The notes beneath the pieces are model-generated. The model was not told the origin of the DNA. It searched no databases and saw nothing but the letters and a program-made list of their open reading frames with translations. A stretch of DNA of 64,000 bases from an uncultured Candidatus Saccharibacteria bacterium (GTDB lineage: Bacteria; Patescibacteriota; Minisyncoccia; Phycocordibacterales; CAIRYW01). Each line of letters begins with the position of its first letter. The first letter of the stretch is position 1. The stretch covers positions 105-64,104 of the forward strand of contig CAYLQP010000002.1 of assembly GCA_964386665.1 (NCBI GenBank), in the 5' to 3' direction. The translations under genes and the position numbers were made by a program. Positions 20,538-51,885 of this stretch are shown here, one piece after another.

Positions 20538-22334
20538 TTACTCCCCCGTCTTCATCATTTTAAGAAACACGTCGTGAGGGATATTCACATTCTTTTTACC
20601 GTGTTCTAACATTTTCTTTTTTCCTTTCTTTTGTTTCTCAAGTAGTTTCATCTTTCGAGTAATGTCTCCTCCGTATAGATACCCCGTCACGTCTTTTCGA
20701 AGCGCCGAAAGCGATCGTGATGCAATAATTCGGCCATTTACTTTGGCCTGAATTTTGGTAGTAAACATTTGTCTTGGCAATACTTTTTCGAGTCGATCAA
20801 CCGCTTTGTTTGCTTCTTCTTCAGCGCGTCTTTGTGCAACCACTCGCGTAAAAGCCTCGATTACCTCATCAGCAACCAATATTTCCATTCTTGTTACATC
20901 CGCATCTCGAAGTGATTCAAATTCATACGAAAGTGACGCATATCCTGAAGACACACTTTTAAGCTCATCAAAAAAATTTCGCATCAACTCTCGAAGTGGC
21001 ATCTTAATTGCAATAGACGTTCGTCCATCTTTGAATGTTTCAGCATCTACCATTTCTGCTTCGTGATCATAAAGCAGTTGATACACATTTCCCACATACT
21101 GGCTTGGACAAATAACAGTGACTGCTACCCACGGCTCTTTGATCCCAATAATCTGACCGTGTTCAGGAAATAGTGATGGTGAATAGATAGTTGTTGTTTT
21201 GCCATTTTTTTCTGTGACTTCATAGGTAATAGTTGGAGTTGCAATCACAAGTGAGAGATTAAATTCTCTTTTGAGACGCTCGGTAATAATCTCAAGATGA
21301 AGCAATCCTAAGAAACCACATCGAAATCCCCGCCCAAGTGACCCGCTTGATTCTTCTTCAAATGAAAAAGCAGAATCAGAAAGTCGAAGTCTCGAAAGAG
21401 CTTGTTTTAAATTCTCAAATTCATCAGCGTCTTCTGGAAACACAGAGGCCCATACCACTGGACTTGGCTTTTCATAACCTGCAAGTGCTGGCAGTTGATT
21501 TCGAAAGAGCGTAATCGTATCTCCAACCGAAGCAACTCCTGGACGCTTGATTCCAGTCACGATAAATCCAATTTCACCTTTTGAAAGCAGACCGACTGTT
21601 TTTTCTTCGGGCACAAACACCCCTACATCAAGTGCGTGAAATTTTTCGTTTGCAATTGTAAACACGAGTTCATCCCCTTTTTTTATACTCCCTTCGGTTA
21701 CTCGCACAAACACAATCACGCCTTTATGATTTGAATATTGGAAATCAAACACAAGAGCTCTTGCAGAACTCGTTTGCATCTCTTCTTTTGGAGGCGGAAT
21801 CTTTTCAACAATTCTTTGTAATAATTCGGGTACCCCTTCACCTGTTTTTCCTGATGCACCCAAAATATCATTTGGGTCACAATCAAGAATTCGCGCAACC
21901 TCGTCTCGAACTTCCTTTAGACGTGCAAGAGGAGAATCAATTTTACTAAGTACAGGAATGATAGTAAGTCCTGCTTCACGCGCCATACGAAGTGTGGTAA
22001 GAGTCTGAGCTTGAACTCCTTGGGTAGAATCAACAAGAAGGATCGAACCTTCAACAGCCTTAAGTGCTCGCGATACTTCATACGAGAAGTCAATGTGACC
22101 TGGGGTATCAATTAAGTTTAGAATATAATTTTCACCCCCTTGTTTGTATTCCATTCGAACAGGACGCATCTTGATTGTGATCCCTTTCTCTCTTTCAAGT
22201 TCCATATCATCGAGAACTTGGTCTTTCATTTTTCGGGCTTCAATCGTATGAGTCACTTCAAGCATTCGATCAGCAAGAGTTGATTTACCGTGGTCGATAT
22301 GGGCAATAATGGTGAAATTTCTAATATGGTTCAT
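20538..22334 (-). CDS. lepA: Elongation factor 4 (LepA)
   Basis: MNHIRNFTIIAHIDHGKSTLADRMLE, the translational GTPase G1-G5 motifs and a LepA C-terminal domain. Confidence 0.95.
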   Translation of the reverse strand: MNHIRNFTIIAHIDHGKSTLADRMLEVTHTIEARKMKDQVLDDMELEREKGITIKMRPVRMEYKQGGENYILNLIDTPGHIDFSYEVSRALKAVEGSILLVDSTQGVQAQTLTTLRMAREAGLTIIPVLSKIDSPLARLKEVRDEVARILDCDPNDILGASGKTGEGVPELLQRIVEKIPPPKEEMQTSSARALVFDFQYSNHKGVIVFVRVTEGSIKKGDELVFTIANEKFHALDVGVFVPEEKTVGLLSKGEIGFIVTGIKRPGVASVGDTITLFRNQLPALAGYEKPSPVVWASVFPEDADEFENLKQALSRLRLSDSAFSFEEESSGSLGRGFRCGFLGLLHLEIITERLKREFNLSLVIATPTITYEVTEKNGKTTTIYSPSLFPEHGQIIGIKEPWVAVTVICPSQYVGNVYQLLYDHEAEMVDAETFKDGRTSIAIKMPLRELMRNFFDELKSVSSGYASLSYEFESLRDADVTRMEILVADEVIEAFTRVVAQRRAEEEANKAVDRLEKVLPRQMFTTKIQAKVNGRIIASRSLSALRKDVTGYLYGGDITRKMKLLEKQKKGKKKMLEHGKKNVNIPHDVFLKMMKTGE

Positions 22335-22440
22335 AAATTTCAGTTAAATATAGCGCAAAATATAGTTTTTGAATGCTTGACATAACAATAATAATGTGCC
22401 AAGATATCTCCAGCTTTTCGCTCATTTACATAAAGGAATT

Positions 22441-22493
22441 TGAATCAGCGTTTTGGGCAGAAATCTCAAGCTTCTGTCCAAAATGCTGATTCA
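22441..22493 (+). ncRNA. Long RNA hairpin with a 22-bp stem in the 5' region of the 22560 gene
   Basis: TGAATCAGCGTTTTGGGCAGAA, a 9-nt loop, then TTCTGTCCAAAATGCTGATTCA. The two mismatches are G-U wobbles only when the + strand is transcribed and C-A on the other strand. That asymmetry points to RNA-level selection on the + strand. Confidence 0.5.
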
Positions 22494-22559
22494 AAGTCTC
22501 CCGTGTGGGAATTTCTTTGACTTAGCGAGTCTTGTCACCTGTGGCTTAATCCCAACAGC

Positions 22560-23033
22560 GTGAGCTTGTCCGCGAGACAGTGGAGAATCCACAAAATAAT
22601 GAAAATCCAACCAGATGGCCCAGACGTTCAAAAAGCACTCAAAGATGGTCGGGTTGACCATCCTGTTTTTAGTGCAATCATGAACATGGTTAACGACACC
22701 TTTCGCTATCAGATCAATCCTCTGCCAATATTGCGCCAGCGATTTCCAGGATTCAACTGGGAGCGAATCGTGGTGCGTGTTGATGGACAAATAGTAGCCA
22801 TCAACCCTAGTTGGCAATATGTATTCGAATCTGAAAGCAGCGAGTGCCACCTAGACGATCGGAACAACGATGAACCGACAATAGTGGTGGCTACTCCAAA
22901 GGACACTTCTCCGTCTAACAGGTATTATTTCACCGCTGGAGCTGACTGTGAAAGCGATACCGAGGACGATGGTTCATGCGAAAGCTTCATGGAAATGCTG
23001 GAAAATGCTGGCTTCATTGAAGTACCCAAGTAG
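22560..23033 (+). CDS. Hypothetical protein (acidic C-terminus), more G+C-rich than its surroundings
   Basis: GTG start, 157 aa. It has its own downstream terminator. G+C content is visibly higher than the neighbouring genes. No recognisable motif. Confidence 0.55.
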   Translation: MSLSARQWRIHKIMKIQPDGPDVQKALKDGRVDHPVFSAIMNMVNDTFRYQINPLPILRQRFPGFNWERIVVRVDGQIVAINPSWQYVFESESSECHLDDRNNDEPTIVVATPKDTSPSNRYYFTAGADCESDTEDDGSCESFMEMLENAGFIEVPK

Positions 23034-23092
23034 AAAAACAGCTCGAAATGGACTAGCGCAACATCACTCGATGTTAACTGGACACTTTTACA

Positions 23093-23129
23093 GCCGGATT
23101 TTGCGCAAGCAGAATCCGGCCTTTTTTTT
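23093..23129 (+). terminator. Intrinsic terminator of the 22560-23033 gene
   Basis: GCCGGATTttgcgcaagcagAATCCGGC followed by a T9 run. Confidence 0.8.
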
Positions 23130-23191
23130 ATTTTTCTCTTTCAGTTTTTTTATACAACCTAACACCTTACACCTAAAAGCTAAACGCCTCT

Positions 23192-24874
23192 CTACTTCAT
23201 ATCACTTTGATCTGGCACCACTACCTCTGGTTTTTTCCAGAATTTTCGATGAAGTGTTCTTCCTACTTCAAACAACTCTTTGCTTCCCAAAATATGAAGC
23301 GTCACAATCCCGCTTCCAATTCCTACAATTCCCGCAAGAAGTCCTTGAAAAAAGATTCCCCACAAACGAGTAAGATCAAACAAATTATCAAAAATATTAA
23401 GTCCAATATAACTTCCAAATCCAATCATCACCGCCGCACAAAAAGACTGAAACAATGTTTTATTAATCCCCTTCCAAAGACCTTTGAAATCTTTTTCAAA
23501 TATATATATAAACAAAAAGGCATTTATAAGTGATCCAATCGAAAAGCCAAGTGGAAGCGCGATGATTTCAGTTCCTTCGATTTGAGAGATTTTGAATATA
23601 TGTTCGAGAAACGTGAGTGTACTTGGCACTTCTTTAAACAAAAACAAAAAAAACAAAGGAAAGACTACGAGCAACACTGAAGAGACAGTGTTAATGATAA
23701 GTGGTTTCTTGGTGCTTCCCGCAGCATAATACGCTCTCACAAAAAGCATACACAAACACTGTGCCGCAGCAGCAAATGCAAAAATCGCAAGACATGCGGC
23801 AGTGAGTCTTGTGTTGTCCCACGAAAAATTTCCACTCCCCAAAACCACACGAACAATTTGAGCTCTAAGCACGACAAAGAAAGCAATAACAGGAAGTGAC
23901 AAGAAAATAATATGCTTTGTTGCAACAATTATCGTTTCAGTGTATTTCTTTTTCTCACCAGAAGAAAATAGTTTTGAAAGCAGTGGAAACGCCGCCATAG
24001 AGTAACTCAGTCCTATCATAAGAAGTGGTACGGACTGAAGATTGTACGCAAGGTTAAAGATTGAAATAGAACCAGCCTGAAGCGTTGATGCAATCGCAAC
24101 AAGTCCAATAAGTGCAATACTTCCAAGTGCAAGACCAATAGTACGAGGAAGTGCTACATCAAAGATTTTTCTGATTGCTTTGATTTTGATTGGCAACACA
24201 ATATCAGGCAACAACCCAGTTTTACTCACAAATGGAACTTGAATAAATCCGTGCAAAAATGCACCCAAAAGTACCCCTGCGATAACTCCCCCAAGCCCAA
24301 AAATAGGTCTTAAGAAAATAATTCCAAACAAAATAGCTGCGTTATAAATAATTGGACAAATTGCATATAAGACAAAGCGTCTATGTGTCTGAGTAATACT
24401 TGCAAACAAGTTTGAAATTCCCATAAACAAGGGTGACAGAAGAAGAATACGACTAAAATGAACTATGTTTTCAATACTTCCCGCATCCATTTGGCTGAAC
24501 AAAAACCGAGTCAATGTCGGCATAAAAATGAACGCAATCACCGACACAAAAATAATTAATACAAAAAAGAGTGAAAATACATTATCAATAAATTCTTTTG
24601 TACTTTCTTTTCCTTCATTTATTTTCTCTTGAAGAAACGGTATTACAATCGAAACAGAAATAAATGATCCAACCATTACGAAAATAAAATCAGGAATACG
24701 AAATGAGGCATAATACACATCAAGCATTTCTCCTGCACCATAAAAGTACGTAAGCATTCTATCTCGAAAGAGACCGAGGATTTGAGATAGCAATGTAAAG
24801 AAAGCAAGGAAGTACGCAGCATTGTGAATGTTTGCGATTTCTTTATTTACAAGACCAAATATTTTTTTTACCAT
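23192..24874 (-). CDS. murJ: Lipid II flippase MurJ/MviN
   Basis: About 14 TM helices. The N-terminal region (FFTLLSQILGLFRDRMLTYFYGAG...SFRIPDFIF) is typical of MurJ. The track ORF extends by GTG to 24898, which would run into the rnpB terminator. I prefer the ATG at 24874. Confidence 0.85.
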   Translation of the reverse strand: MVKKIFGLVNKEIANIHNAAYFLAFFTLLSQILGLFRDRMLTYFYGAGEMLDVYYASFRIPDFIFVMVGSFISVSIVIPFLQEKINEGKESTKEFIDNVFSLFFVLIIFVSVIAFIFMPTLTRFLFSQMDAGSIENIVHFSRILLLSPLFMGISNLFASITQTHRRFVLYAICPIIYNAAILFGIIFLRPIFGLGGVIAGVLLGAFLHGFIQVPFVSKTGLLPDIVLPIKIKAIRKIFDVALPRTIGLALGSIALIGLVAIASTLQAGSISIFNLAYNLQSVPLLMIGLSYSMAAFPLLSKLFSSGEKKKYTETIIVATKHIIFLSLPVIAFFVVLRAQIVRVVLGSGNFSWDNTRLTAACLAIFAFAAAAQCLCMLFVRAYYAAGSTKKPLIINTVSSVLLVVFPLFFLFLFKEVPSTLTFLEHIFKISQIEGTEIIALPLGFSIGSLINAFLFIYIFEKDFKGLWKGINKTLFQSFCAAVMIGFGSYIGLNIFDNLFDLTRLWGIFFQGLLAGIVGIGSGIVTLHILGSKELFEVGRTLHRKFWKKPEVVVPDQSDMK

Positions 24875-24898
24875 TTTTGTTTCTTGGTATTTTAACAC

Positions 24899-24921
24899 AA
24901 AACGCGCATTACTGCGCGTTT
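24899..24921 (-). terminator. Intrinsic terminator of RNase P RNA
   Basis: In RNA sense: AACGCGCAguaaUGCGCGUUUUGUG. Confidence 0.75.
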
Positions 24922-25270
24922 TGTGTCTTGTCTATAAGCCGAATTCTGTTCAAGCATCTGTCGTAAGACAGATAAGCTTTTGATAATCATTTATCTAGGG
25001 ACTTTGTTACCAAAATCCTCAAGCGGCACTTCCGTCAAAGACGGACACGGCCTTGCACACAAGTAAGGGTTTAGCCGTTGCATTCTCTATGTTGCCATAA
25101 AGATTTATCCAATTGCTTGGATACCTTATCCTTTCGGAATCAGGCGTCACTGTTCGCACCTCTAGGATTGCTCCAGACGGGGGTTACCCGCTACCCTTGT
25201 CTTATCAAAAAGACTATGTGTTCGGACTTTCCTCAAGAAAACAAGTTTCCTGCGATTATCCGACAAGAAA
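24922..25270 (-). ncRNA. rnpB: RNase P RNA (bacterial type A-like)
   Basis: In RNA sense it has GAGGAAAGUCCGAAC (P4 5' strand) and ACAGAAUUCGGCUUAU (P4 3' strand). The GG->AA change in the 5' strand is compensated by CC->UU in the 3' strand relative to E. coli. P2 is GAUAAUC/GAUUAUC. CUAGAUAAAUGA, GCUUGAGG and GGAGCAA blocks are present. A promoter lies upstream and a terminator downstream. Confidence 0.88.
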
Positions 25271-25273
25271 AAA

Positions 25274-47831: not shown

Positions 47832-47903
47832 GGCCCTATCGTCTAACGGTTAGGACGAAGCGTTCTCAATGCTTAAATCAGAGTTCGATTCTCTGTAGGG
47901 TCA
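47832..47903 (+). tRNA. tRNA-Glu(CUC)
   Basis: Hand-folded. The acceptor is GGCCCUA/UAGGGUC (one G-U). The D-arm is GUC-UAACGGUUAG-GAC. The anticodon arm is AAGCG-UUCUCAA-UGCUU. The T-arm is CAGAG-UUCGAUU-CUCUG. The discriminator is A. Confidence 0.8.
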
Positions 47904-47934
47904 CAATAGAGAGAGCTAGTTCGAGCACTCGAGA
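47901..47934 (+). repeat. 34-bp direct repeat, copy 1 (begins in the last 3 nt of tRNA-Glu)
   Basis: TCACAATAGAGAGAGCTAGTTCGAGCACTCGAGA, identical to 48854-48887. Confidence 0.9.
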
Positions 47935-47952
47935 GGGGTCGAAAGACTCTTG

Positions 47953-48853: not shown

Positions 48854-48887
48854 TCACAATAGAGAGAGCTAGTTCGAGCACTCGAGA
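48854..48887 (+). repeat. 34-bp direct repeat, copy 2
   Basis: Identical to 47901-47934. It ends 8 nt before the ATG of island gene B. Confidence 0.9.
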
Positions 48888-48894
48888 AGGATAT

Positions 48895-49488: not shown

Positions 49489-49893
49489 ATGAACTCCTAC
49501 AACTGGTACTCACAATTAATCAGACCTACGTGGTCACCTCCCGGATGGCTTTTTGGTCCTGTATGGTCGGTGCTTTATACCATCATTGCGGTTTCGTTTG
49601 GAACGGTCTTTTACAAAGCATTCACAAAACAGATTCCTTGGTTTGTTGCACTTCCCTTCGCACTAAACTTACTCTTCAACTTCATCTTTACTCCAATCCA
49701 ATTTGGACTCAAAAACAATCTTCTTGCAGCAATCGACATCTTGCTTGTACTTGCAACACTTATTTGGGCGCTTGTCTTACTTTGGAAAACAGTACCGAAT
49801 CTACATTGGGTAGTATATGCAAACATTCCCTACCTTCTCTGGGTGACATTCGCCACCTGCCTCCAACTCACCATCACGTATTTGAATAAATAA
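49489..49893 (+). CDS. tspO: TspO/MBR family tryptophan-rich sensory protein
   Basis: WYSQLIRPTWSPPGWLFGPVWSVLYTII and five TM helices. The stop codon is at 49891-49893, inside the 51-bp repeat. Confidence 0.85.
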   Translation: MNSYNWYSQLIRPTWSPPGWLFGPVWSVLYTIIAVSFGTVFYKAFTKQIPWFVALPFALNLLFNFIFTPIQFGLKNNLLAAIDILLVLATLIWALVLLWKTVPNLHWVVYANIPYLLWVTFATCLQLTITYLNK

Positions 49894-49894
49894 A
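49844..49894 (+). repeat. 51-bp perfect direct repeat, copy 1 (last 16 codons plus stop of tspO)
   Basis: TGACATTCGCCACCTGCCTCCAACTCACCATCACGTATTTGAATAAATAAA, identical to 51050-51100. Confidence 0.92.
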
Positions 49895-50983
49895 CTAGTG
49901 TCCTCTTTTTTTAATAAAGACCGGAGGTTTTTCTATTGGTGTACCTTTATCTGGAAACAATTCCACTATTTCATCCAAAATATATTTCCATGTTTTCATA
50001 TCTCTAAAACCATCACCTGGGGTCAGAAACAAATCTTCTCCATTTATTTTATTTGGCTTTAAAGAAGCATCAATTCCAAATTCTTGCGCTTTTGTTTGAA
50101 TCCGAGAAAAGAGCAACGGATCTATGGAATCTTTCTCAAACCCAATCATTTGCCTACCTGTGTACATATATTTCTCATTGATCCCTGAATATGTCGTTTT
50201 GTAGCCTTTTTTTGCAAGATGGATCACAGCATCTCTTACTTGAAACTCAAGCATCTCTTTAAAAACACCTATCCTCTCTTCATCTGCATCTGGTATAAGT
50301 TCTGACATATCAGTAACGCCATTCTCTTGCAACCTTCTTGCAAGAGAATGATCTGTTTCTTCTTTAAGTTTTGCTACTTCCACTTGATTTACTTTTGCAT
50401 TTCTTTCTTGTTCTTCCGTAAGAATATGAGGCTGACCATCAAGAAATCTGTCTATTGCCCCTCTGATTCCGAAGTGAATATCTTCTGACACCTCTTTACT
50501 AAAAGAGAGTGAATAATGACCATCATCAAGACGAAAAGTAATCCCATACTTATCTAATTGGGCTTGTAAATCTGCTGGCAGAGACTGTTCTTCTTTATTG
50601 AGAAGTGGAGATTTTTTTTGATTAAACTTAAATCTGTCTATAAAATTTTTAAAACGAATAAAAAGACGTGTAAACACCCCTGGTTCTTTTTTACCTTTCG
50701 AAGGCAAAGATCTGTCTGGAGATAACGAAAAACTTGTTCGAGGACCTTTCTCTTCTTGTCTTACTATATCGTTATCGTCGCCCGAATCTAGATTAAGTGA
50801 ATCTCTCACCTGTTTAGCCATACCCCTATCATCAGCCGCAGCTTCCACCACCTCAATTCCAGAACTTTCATTTTTATTTCCATTTCCTTCTAGAACCTTC
50901 GTATGCTCAGGAAAAAAGACTCCTGATTCTGATTTAGGTATTTCTCCTTTATCCGTATTGGAAGAATGCATTTCTGAGGACAT
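49895..50983 (-). CDS. Hypothetical protein (inserted gene C)
   Basis: 362 aa. The N-terminal 110 aa or so are acidic and Ser-rich and look disordered. The C-terminal 250 aa are globular with no recognised motif. Its stop codon abuts repeat copy 1. Confidence 0.55.
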   Translation of the reverse strand: MSSEMHSSNTDKGEIPKSESGVFFPEHTKVLEGNGNKNESSGIEVVEAAADDRGMAKQVRDSLNLDSGDDNDIVRQEEKGPRTSFSLSPDRSLPSKGKKEPGVFTRLFIRFKNFIDRFKFNQKKSPLLNKEEQSLPADLQAQLDKYGITFRLDDGHYSLSFSKEVSEDIHFGIRGAIDRFLDGQPHILTEEQERNAKVNQVEVAKLKEETDHSLARRLQENGVTDMSELIPDADEERIGVFKEMLEFQVRDAVIHLAKKGYKTTYSGINEKYMYTGRQMIGFEKDSIDPLLFSRIQTKAQEFGIDASLKPNKINGEDLFLTPGDGFRDMKTWKYILDEIVELFPDKGTPIEKPPVFIKKRGH

Positions 50984-51049: not shown

Positions 51050-51100
51050 TGACATTCGCCACCTGCCTCCAACTCACCATCACGTATTTGAATAAATAAA
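51050..51100 (+). repeat. 51-bp perfect direct repeat, copy 2
   Basis: Identical to 49844-49894. It reconstitutes a tspO 3' end with no gene attached. Confidence 0.92.
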
Positions 51101-51138: not shown

Positions 51139-51885
51139 TCACCGCACCTCTAATCCTGCCTCCCTGTAGACAGTAGAAACATAATCATTCCACGCCGGAC
51201 TGTTTTCGTTACCTCCAGAACGTTTCCAGGCCTGATACCAATCCAGGCTATCAGAGTTTGGAATGATGCCGTACTTTTCAATAGACGGCACTATCGCAAA
51301 GCGACAAGACTGAGCCCACGCGTACTTTTCGGACCTGATCAATTCATCTGTGTTTTGATGCGTTTTACCGCGATCAAAAACCAAATGTTCAAGTTCGTGA
51401 TGGATCGAAGAAAGAAAACTTACTTTGAGCTGCTGTTCAAAATTTTCTTTTGATACAGAGCGCAAGCTTTCTGCTATATCCATCTGTCTCTGCACCACAA
51501 TCTCTATCACCGGGACACCCTGGTCAAACCACGCCCCTGCCGCTACAGTACGACTTTTGTAATGATAGGTCGTGATTAACCGCACTGCAACGGGTTTTGA
51601 ATAGAGCAACTCTATTTGTTCCCGAAGCTCAGTGACACGACCCTGAACTTCAGTGAACGTGGACTTCCCTTCAAACAGCTCGTTGAAGGTTTTTTCCAAG
51701 CAGGTTGTCCAAAAACGTTTCTGCGCATCCTCAGACCGATCAGAAAAGACTGGAACATAATTACTGATCGACGGTTCGTCGGCAGTCTTGTGCTCAGTAT
51801 TTTTCCGATTTGACGACATGAACAGTGGCAGAACGATTAACACACTAACCAACAGAGCAAGGATAATAGGAATTTTTGATTTCAT
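51139..51885 (-). CDS. Membrane-anchored putative zinc metallopeptidase (HExxH)
   Basis: N-terminal TM/signal helix (IPIILALLVSVLIVLPLF). HHELEHLVF is an HExxH motif. G+C content is visibly higher than the flanks. Confidence 0.55.
   Translation of the reverse strand: MKSKIPIILALLVSVLIVLPLFMSSNRKNTEHKTADEPSISNYVPVFSDRSEDAQKRFWTTCLEKTFNELFEGKSTFTEVQGRVTELREQIELLYSKPVAVRLITTYHYKSRTVAAGAWFDQGVPVIEIVVQRQMDIAESLRSVSKENFEQQLKVSFLSSIHHELEHLVFDRGKTHQNTDELIRSEKYAWAQSCRFAIVPSIEKYGIIPNSDSLDWYQAWKRSGGNENSPAWNDYVSTVYREAGLEVR

Follow-up and report, generated by a model that had tools for sequence, protein, structure and literature searches.

An orphan gene in the lepA-murJ interval of a Candidatus Saccharibacteria contig carries a putative leader RNA with a nearly invariant core

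The 64,000-nucleotide (nt) stretch of contig CAYLQP010000002.1 (assembly GCA_964386665.1, from an uncultured Candidatus Saccharibacteria bacterium; positions 105 to 64,104, forward strand), which is referred to here as the window, contains a single plus-strand gene for an orphan protein, P0001, between lepA and murJ, both on the minus strand, and raises the question why such a gene should be preceded by a long inverted repeat. Our answer, held with moderate confidence, is that the gene forms part of an autonomous, probably horizontally acquired cassette, and that a new leader RNA, which acts in cis and has no counterpart in Rfam, controls its translation or stability.

When 5.8 billion protein clusters were searched by word index, the query alone was recovered, while phmmer, run exhaustively against 1.84 billion representatives, returned P0002 (148 amino acids (aa), 38% identity, E=3e-17), P0003 (151 aa, E=2.8e-4) and one spurious repeat protein; profile searches added P0005 as the sole further member, giving a family of four which shares the motif F..NPLP.LR..FP.F.W and little besides (18-35% identity). 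DNA encoding P0003 was found in the mutually identical loci L081 to L085, and DNA encoding P0005 in L086 to L089, likewise mutually identical, which were recovered by a metagenome scan with a 20-mer of the leader. The window, L081 and L086 have a common layout comprising a sigma-70-like promoter, a long hairpin, a conserved leader, the open reading frame (ORF) and a terminator. This same layout occurs in three contexts, murJ|lepA in the window, murC|murD in L081 (murC on one side, a small membrane gene and murD on the other) and rpoB|trmD in L086, while on the 1,691-nt contig encoding P0002 (ERZ27296333) a convergent trmD gene is located downstream.

The hairpin, designated P0 (Table 1), was described in the original prediction as a 22-bp inverted repeat at 22441-22493, and its two imperfections were taken as a sign of selection on an RNA structure since they pair as G-U on the plus strand only. 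The repeat is real and its imperfections are confined to G22450·T22484 and G22457·T22477, G·U on the plus strand and A·C on the other, but the stem is longer, at 24 bp. On its own this asymmetry is weak evidence, as two transitions share a strand by chance about half the time; it gains weight with the homologues included, for which the three loci together contain seven G·U or U·G wobbles on the plus strand as against one A·C, equivalent to a G·U on the opposite strand (one-sided binomial p ~0.035). P0 is present at the matching place in both L081 and L086 and in each has exactly 24 positions per arm, as in the window, where all 24 pair; pairing amounts to 14+5+3 bp in L081 and to 16+8 bp in L086, with single mismatches. 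The arms are 56-73% identical among the loci, and compensatory double changes were observed in 11 of the 24 pairs. In total 95.8% of the aligned cells are standard pairs, a value equalled by none of 500 shuffles and reduced to 33-46% when the partner strand was slid by one to three columns. The proposed selection on an RNA structure in the leader is thus supported once the homologues are included, and sequence comparison shows P0 to be a plus-strand RNA helix of conserved length.

Long leader hairpins processed by RNase III are known from the rnc and pnp leaders of E. coli, from R1.1 of phage T7 and from the N leader of lambda. P0 resembles these in being a long, near-perfect stem of double-stranded RNA (dsRNA) in the 5′ untranslated region (UTR), of about two helical turns, and it offers the at least ~20 bp of essentially uninterrupted dsRNA expected of an RNase III substrate. 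By analogy it may be a site for RNase III or a dsRNA-binding protein, or a stabiliser. A further resemblance is that length is conserved at 24 bp while the sequence drifts. Unlike the processed leaders, P0 lies ~25-35 nt from the predicted 5′ end and is followed by a second conserved element.

This second element, at 22499-22598 downstream of the hairpin, contains the nearly invariant core. The core is identical at 51-53 of 54 aligned positions (94-98%) across the window, L081 and L086; the linker that precedes it is 48-79% identical among the loci, and the sites of the ORF differ by 49-69% at each of the three codon positions, indicative of saturation. According to these alignments, purifying selection on the core is extreme and acts on its nucleotide sequence. 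A coding origin was rejected, as 1- and 2-nt insertions or deletions break all frames and the extension of the gene to an upstream GTG is out of frame in L086. No match to the core was obtained with Rfam 15 at gathering or permissive thresholds for the window, L081 or L086, and the matches returned were sub-threshold, resembled miRNA precursors and were restricted to the long hairpin (at most 23 bits, thresholds being 47-102). A scan for tRNA and tmRNA returned no match in the region, and the core displayed no similarity to phages or plasmids. Mimicry of rRNA or tRNA was also rejected, as there was no similarity to E. coli genomes, a comparison which left out rRNA of the Candidate Phyla Radiation (CPR).

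Within the core, a 10-bp hairpin (22535-22544 / 22552-22563) is present in all predictions, and UUGUC-CGCGA-GACAG (22566-22580) can form a further stem-loop, while for the remainder a four-way junction and an irregular rod fit equally, with ~95% pairing each and zero double changes. One-sided changes preserve pairing, U·G becoming U-A in UUGUC/GACAG and C-G becoming U·G. Folding z-scores of the core range from -1.5 to -2.6 on the plus strand and from -0.3 to -0.8 on the minus strand, and those of the whole leader from -6 to -7 in the three loci. The leader also contains a ~10-nt imperfect direct repeat, GAG(U)CUUGUC.

The element may be closed over the ribosome-binding site. UUUC (22512-22515), flanked by G-G-A, can pair with GGAG-AA-UCC (22582-22590) to give a helix, P1, of which 87.5% is paired over the three loci, and the partners UUUC and GGAG are invariant in all of them. 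Alternative pairings are available in a local hairpin over the Shine-Dalgarno sequence (GUGGA-GAA-UCCAC, 22580-22592) and between UCCC (22499-22502) and GGGA (22507-22510). The second and third bases of GGAG are predicted to be paired almost always in the three leaders (probability of being unpaired at most 0.2), whereas at the outer positions pairing is partial or largely absent in the window and L081; in L086 all four bases are paired. Modelling thus shows pairing of the ribosome-binding site to be possible in all three leaders, and in silico an expression platform overlaps this site. As read from the sequence, the anti-Shine-Dalgarno stretches are situated in the second element past the hairpin, an element absent from the original prediction, and not in the hairpin itself. 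This arrangement is reminiscent of translational riboswitches and other leaders which sequester the Shine-Dalgarno sequence (SAM-II, preQ1-II, ribosomal-protein leaders), where the closing helix likewise contains the Shine-Dalgarno sequence and a conserved core lies upstream of an expression platform with alternative pairings. Unlike those, the cassette leader has no Rfam family and no known ligand or hint from gene association, its core stems are invariant rather than covarying, and its three instances all precede one orphan family.

The surroundings of the gene point to acquisition. The window is A+T-rich (37.4% G+C) and its genes are closest to genomes of Paceibacteria/Parcubacteria (CPR), the closest LepA among GTDB species representatives being 77% identical. 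murJ is the immediate upstream neighbour of lepA, in the same orientation, in 57 of 80 related Paceibacteria loci, with a gap of at most 260 nt in 35 of the 57; in the window the gap is 857 nt and contains one long ORF, on the plus strand. None of the 80 loci contains the ORF (tblastn) or the leader, comprising P0 and core (covariance model R1), and a scan of the window plus 82 loci with this model (0.98 Mb, the 80 included) returned the three known copies and nothing further. As neither ORF nor leader occurs in the 80 relatives, the cassette is a lineage-specific insert, antisense within a conserved gene pair. The G+C content of the ORF is 0.468, and 0.465 at third codon positions, the corresponding averages of 50 long window ORFs being 0.376±0.034 and 0.285±0.059. 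No other ORF of the window is as rich in G+C, and just 0.16% of 435-nt sliding windows are as high, in agreement with its earlier description as an isolated plus-strand gene visibly richer in G+C than its neighbours. Neither an average G+C content nor homologous leaders lacking the hairpin, either of which would have spoken against the original prediction, was observed. In L081 the cassette has 46% G+C and its contig 36%. No match to the cassette was obtained in phage, plasmid and E. coli collections, as DNA or as protein, or in IMG/VR with three DNA patterns and one protein profile; the estimate of rarity rests on JGI metagenomes, IMG/VR and protein databases.

A number of points weigh against a cassette governed by a regulatory leader RNA. 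The analysis is one of sequence, and it is from sequence that we infer regulation by sequestration of the ribosome-binding site, the nature of the trigger, an involvement of RNase III and a horizontal origin. Hairpin, core and ORF were compared over only three independent DNA loci, and the contigs share no genes by which the relatedness of their hosts might be measured. P1 has a mismatch in each sequence and no compensatory change, the distance from the Shine-Dalgarno sequence to the AUG is long (10-13 nt), and no helix inside the core has covariation support, owing to the fact that the core never varies. Invariant stems are atypical for riboswitch aptamers across saturated divergence, and base-specific recognition along the whole element by a protein or RNA partner, or a role at the DNA level, may be the better fit. 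The terminators of L081 (1642-1669) and L086 (4549-4575) are identical over 27 nt (CCCGACTCGCGTTCGCGCGTTTCGGGA) despite upstream ORFs which are 22% identical, an identity that control of translation by RNA does not explain. Finally, the G+C excess of the L086 cassette is small (42.5%, its contig 40%).

If the cassette does carry a regulatory leader RNA, horizontal acquisition would have placed a transcription unit antisense into the conserved murJ-lepA junction. Its leader would consist of two modules, the fixed-length 24-bp P0 and a larger fold around the core, the latter closed by the UUUC strand pairing with GGAG, and by default this fold would conceal the ribosome-binding site. The invariant core would be recognised by some conserved component of the cell, whether metabolite, ion, host protein or host RNA, and this recognition would shift the balance to the alternatives, UCCC/GGGA or the local Shine-Dalgarno hairpin, and thereby set translation of the orphan protein. 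Since the RNA is constant and the proteins are 18-35% identical, the partner of the core would more likely be a conserved cellular component than the encoded protein. P0 might serve as a fixed-length dsRNA module, either as a site for RNase III or a dsRNA-binding protein or as a stabiliser setting the half-life of the mRNA. The leader, at ~185 nt, is compact and directly testable, with one helix established through covariation and 56 nt conserved to the degree seen in ribozymes or segments of rRNA, and the outlasting of the coding part by the non-coding parts is contrary to the usual expectation for orphan genes. Members of the CPR/Patescibacteria are uncultivated and, to our knowledge, very few regulatory RNAs are known there. 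A core that senses a conserved cellular signal would represent a new class of regulatory RNA, a core that marks a mobile cassette would represent a new way in which small genes disperse between CPR genomes, and, were the RNA the selected unit, this would be an RNA-centred selfish or accessory module of an undescribed kind. The practical limit is rarity, as the candidate RNA is very rare and three sequences are too few to deduce its fold or trigger.

We regard it as possible, if rather unlikely, that the leader belongs to a novel class of RNAs sensing a ligand or factor (riboswitch-like, self-processing or gated by RNase III) carried by a tiny cassette moving horizontally among CPR genomes, the RNA and not the protein being the selected unit. 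It is unlikely that the 5′ part is a stable non-coding or dual-function RNA, with P0 and core as its functional parts, perhaps released by RNase III at P0, and the ORF secondary and weakly constrained. Conservation is indeed far higher in the RNA than in the protein, stable RNAs of A+T-rich genomes typically have a high G+C content (as does the nearby RNase P RNA), and a fixed 24-bp helix is like a processing stem. However, no terminator or obvious 3′ end separates the core from the ORF, the 3′ flank of the core holds the Shine-Dalgarno sequence and leads directly into an ORF that has been maintained, has a conserved motif and is modelled with confidence, and the element was never seen without the ORF. 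Type III toxin-antitoxin systems, in which tandem ~36-nt RNA repeats and a terminator precede an endoribonuclease of the ToxN family, differ from the cassette (ToxIN-like systems included) in that its leader has no tandem repeats and PADLOC and Pfam gave no match.

We consider it distinctly unlikely that hairpin, core and terminator are DNA-level recognition sites for the movement of a ~750-bp cassette, as ends of a non-autonomous mobile element or as a folded site of the attC kind, even though such a role would accommodate the three insertion contexts, the atypical composition, the very patchy distribution, the conservation of both ends in L081 and L086 (core and 27-nt terminator, around ORFs 22% identical) and the occurrence of other inserts bounded by direct repeats in the same window. 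No recombinase or transposase is located within or beside any copy; neither terminal inverted repeats nor target-site duplications were found, only 9-12-nt repeats at chance level; and the window has one copy of the cassette, 0.98 Mb of related DNA none. In addition, P0002 and L086 both adjoin trmD despite an identity of 26%, suggestive of vertical inheritance in that setting, the G·U asymmetry and the pairing of the ribosome-binding site point to RNA, and phage, plasmid and viral collections were without match. A known parallel is IS200, a ~700-bp element with a ~150-aa ORF, the 5′ region of which contains a terminator-like hairpin and a stem-loop occluding the ribosome-binding site of tnpA. 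The cassette resembles it in size, in order (hairpin, occlusion of the ribosome-binding site, ~150-aa ORF), in patchy distribution and in atypical composition. It differs from IS200/IS605 elements in that none of the four proteins has a Y1/HUH transposase signature or a Pfam match, the invariant columns of the family including neither a His-hydrophobic-His motif nor a conserved Tyr pattern, and in that it occurs once in the window and is missing from the 80 related loci, with no element ends or target duplications, and an ordinary terminator as its 3′ hairpin. Integron attC cassettes differ likewise, as here the conserved hairpin precedes the ORF instead of following it, GTTRRRY/RYYYAAC cores were not seen, and the neighbours are housekeeping genes and not an array.

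Autoregulation, whereby the encoded protein would bind the core or P0 of its own leader and repress translation in the manner of ribosomal-protein leaders, is improbable. Leader and ORF are tightly coupled in all known copies and the ribosome-binding site lies inside a structured element, but a specific RNA-protein pair would be expected to co-vary, the reverse of an invariant RNA accompanied by proteins of 18-35% identity, the proteins are acidic (isoelectric point (pI) 4.4-5.7) and so unfavourable for binding RNA, and no RNA-binding fold was detected. An ordinary lineage-specific orphan with a hairpin and leader similarity due to recent common ancestry or chance is highly improbable, for although orphans and lineage-specific inserts are common at the murJ|lepA junction of relatives and two G·U pairs alone prove little, the ORFs and the remaining leader are heavily diverged around a core 94-98% identical, P0 has 11 compensatory pairs and all three leaders fold with z-scores of -6 to -7. 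As with other orphans of CPR/Patescibacteria, the product is a small hypothetical protein with homologues only in a handful of metagenomic contigs; unlike them, it has its own promoter, structured leader and terminator, and non-coding sequence far more conserved than the coding.

Table 1. Positions in the window of the cassette, its parts and its neighbours
Feature	Positions	Strand	Description
Cassette transcription unit	22377-23129	+	Promoter, ~185-nt structured leader, 144-aa ORF, terminator
Putative sigma-70-type promoter	22377-22405	+	-35 TTGACA 22377-22382, 17-nt spacer, TG 22397-22398, -10 CAAGAT 22400-22405
Conserved motif in 5′ tail	22420-22430	+	GCTCATTTACA; may form small 5′ hairpin; resembles boxA
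P0 hairpin	22439-22495	+	24 bp, arms 22439-22462 / 22472-22495, loop 22463-22471 (9 nt)
Variable linker with anti-Shine-Dalgarno strand	22499-22523	+	GGAAUUUC 22508-22515 = P1 5′ strand
Leader core, ~56 nt	22524-22579	+	AGCGAGUCUUGUCACCUGUGGCU(UA)A(U)CCCAACAGnGUGAGCUUGUCCGCGAGACA
Ribosome-binding region	22580-22598	+	Shine-Dalgarno GGAG 22582-22585; P1 3′ strand 22583-22590
Orphan protein gene P0001	22599-23033	+	144 aa; motif F..NPLP.LR..FP.F.W; pI 4.4
Intrinsic terminator	23093-23129	+	12-bp stem 23093-23120, GCAA loop, T8 23122-23129; plus strand only
lepA	20538-22334	-	Cassette neighbour
murJ	23192-24898	-	Cassette neighbour
Promoter-like site for lepA	22359-22388	-	TTGTTA-18-TATATT; 9/12 consensus matches; weak, inferred

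The gene itself is real and protein-coding, with a start that differs from the one originally assigned. It had been read as a 157-aa gene at 22560-23033, starting at GTG 22560; judging from the alignments, translation almost certainly begins at ATG 22599, as the homologues all begin at an ATG aligned with this position and the GTG, which sits within conserved non-coding sequence, is out of frame with the ORF in L086. A public prediction also gives 144 aa. None of the four proteins had a credible match in Pfam, PHROGs, PADLOC, NCBIfam or sequence profiles of the PDB. An AlphaFold2 model of P0001 is alpha/beta and fairly confident (pLDDT 78, pTM 0.74, the predicted local distance difference test and template modelling scores), and a Foldseek comparison with the PDB and with the viral folds of BFVD produced no match (best E 0.3-1.2, TM at most 0.27). 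The acidic C-terminus noted for the window copy is present there, but the tail is not conserved elsewhere in the family, which is merely moderately acidic (pI 4.4-5.7); the idea of a DNA mimic derived from this window-specific tail was therefore rejected.

The putative promoter, from which a transcription start of the cassette near 22412 is predicted, was not listed by a promoter scanner, the -10 hexamer matching at three of six positions; its counterparts in the alignment are TTTACA-16-TATAAT (L081) and TTGACA-18-TATAAT (L086), and the -35 boxes are located 62-70 nt upstream of the hairpin. The motif of the 5′ tail is partly conserved, as CCTTTACA in L081 and GTTCTTTTACA in L086, with GCTCATTTACA of the window and GTTCTTTTACA of L086 lying 9-19 nt upstream of P0. 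Its resemblance to boxA (consensus GCUCUUUAACAA), which precedes a hairpin in antitermination leaders of the boxA/nut type, is not statistically significant, as strings with at most two mismatches occur ~20 times per 64 kb in this A+T-rich DNA. The strong terminator that had been attributed to the gene was recovered as described, and L081 and L086 also have a terminator at the corresponding position. In these two loci the 5′ arm of the terminator, GACUCGCG, is complementary to GCGAGUC of the core (7 bp, ~0.06 expected by chance), a possible pairing of 5′ and 3′ UTR which is absent from the window cassette.

With regard to the junction, the promoter-like sites of lepA and of the cassette are arranged back to back, at most 42 nt from the start of lepA. 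As the cassette terminator lacks a run of T when read on the minus strand, transcripts of murJ may continue antisense across the cassette into lepA. The murJ|lepA gaps of the relatives L008, L011, L016, L024 and L053 contain other lineage-specific genes, the genes found at the junction in relatives being a 586-aa ABC-transporter-like ORF or small toxin-antitoxin-like pairs, and insertions seem to recur at this junction. In L071 (CAYZZT010000003.1, 6001-8331) the match to lepA covers 2,331 nt as compared to the usual ~1,790, the frame being broken after approximately residue 65 by ~550 nt, possibly an intron, a miniature inverted-repeat transposable element or another insertion.

Other features of composition and repeat structure were observed elsewhere in the window. 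A second peak of G+C at ~24900-25200 is accounted for by an RNase P RNA of bacterial class A just past murJ (24919-25271, minus strand; 118.8 bits, E=9e-36). The second-highest G+C among genes belongs to a hypothetical gene of 248 aa (51139-51885, minus strand; 0.45 overall and 0.47 at third codon positions), which is compositionally foreign and adjoins a repeat-flanked insert. There, a perfect 51-nt direct repeat (49844-49894 / 51050-51100) flanks a hypothetical ORF of 362 aa (49895-50983, minus strand); the repeat is a duplicated 3′ end of a 134-aa membrane ORF (49489-49893), and the arrangement resembles an insertion accompanied by a long duplication of its target. A further direct repeat of 37 nt (47901-47937 / 48854-48890, 36/37 identical) begins, in its first copy, at the 3′ end of a tRNA-Glu gene (47832-47904), the second copy being 953 nt downstream, which suggests an integrated element or serial insertions.

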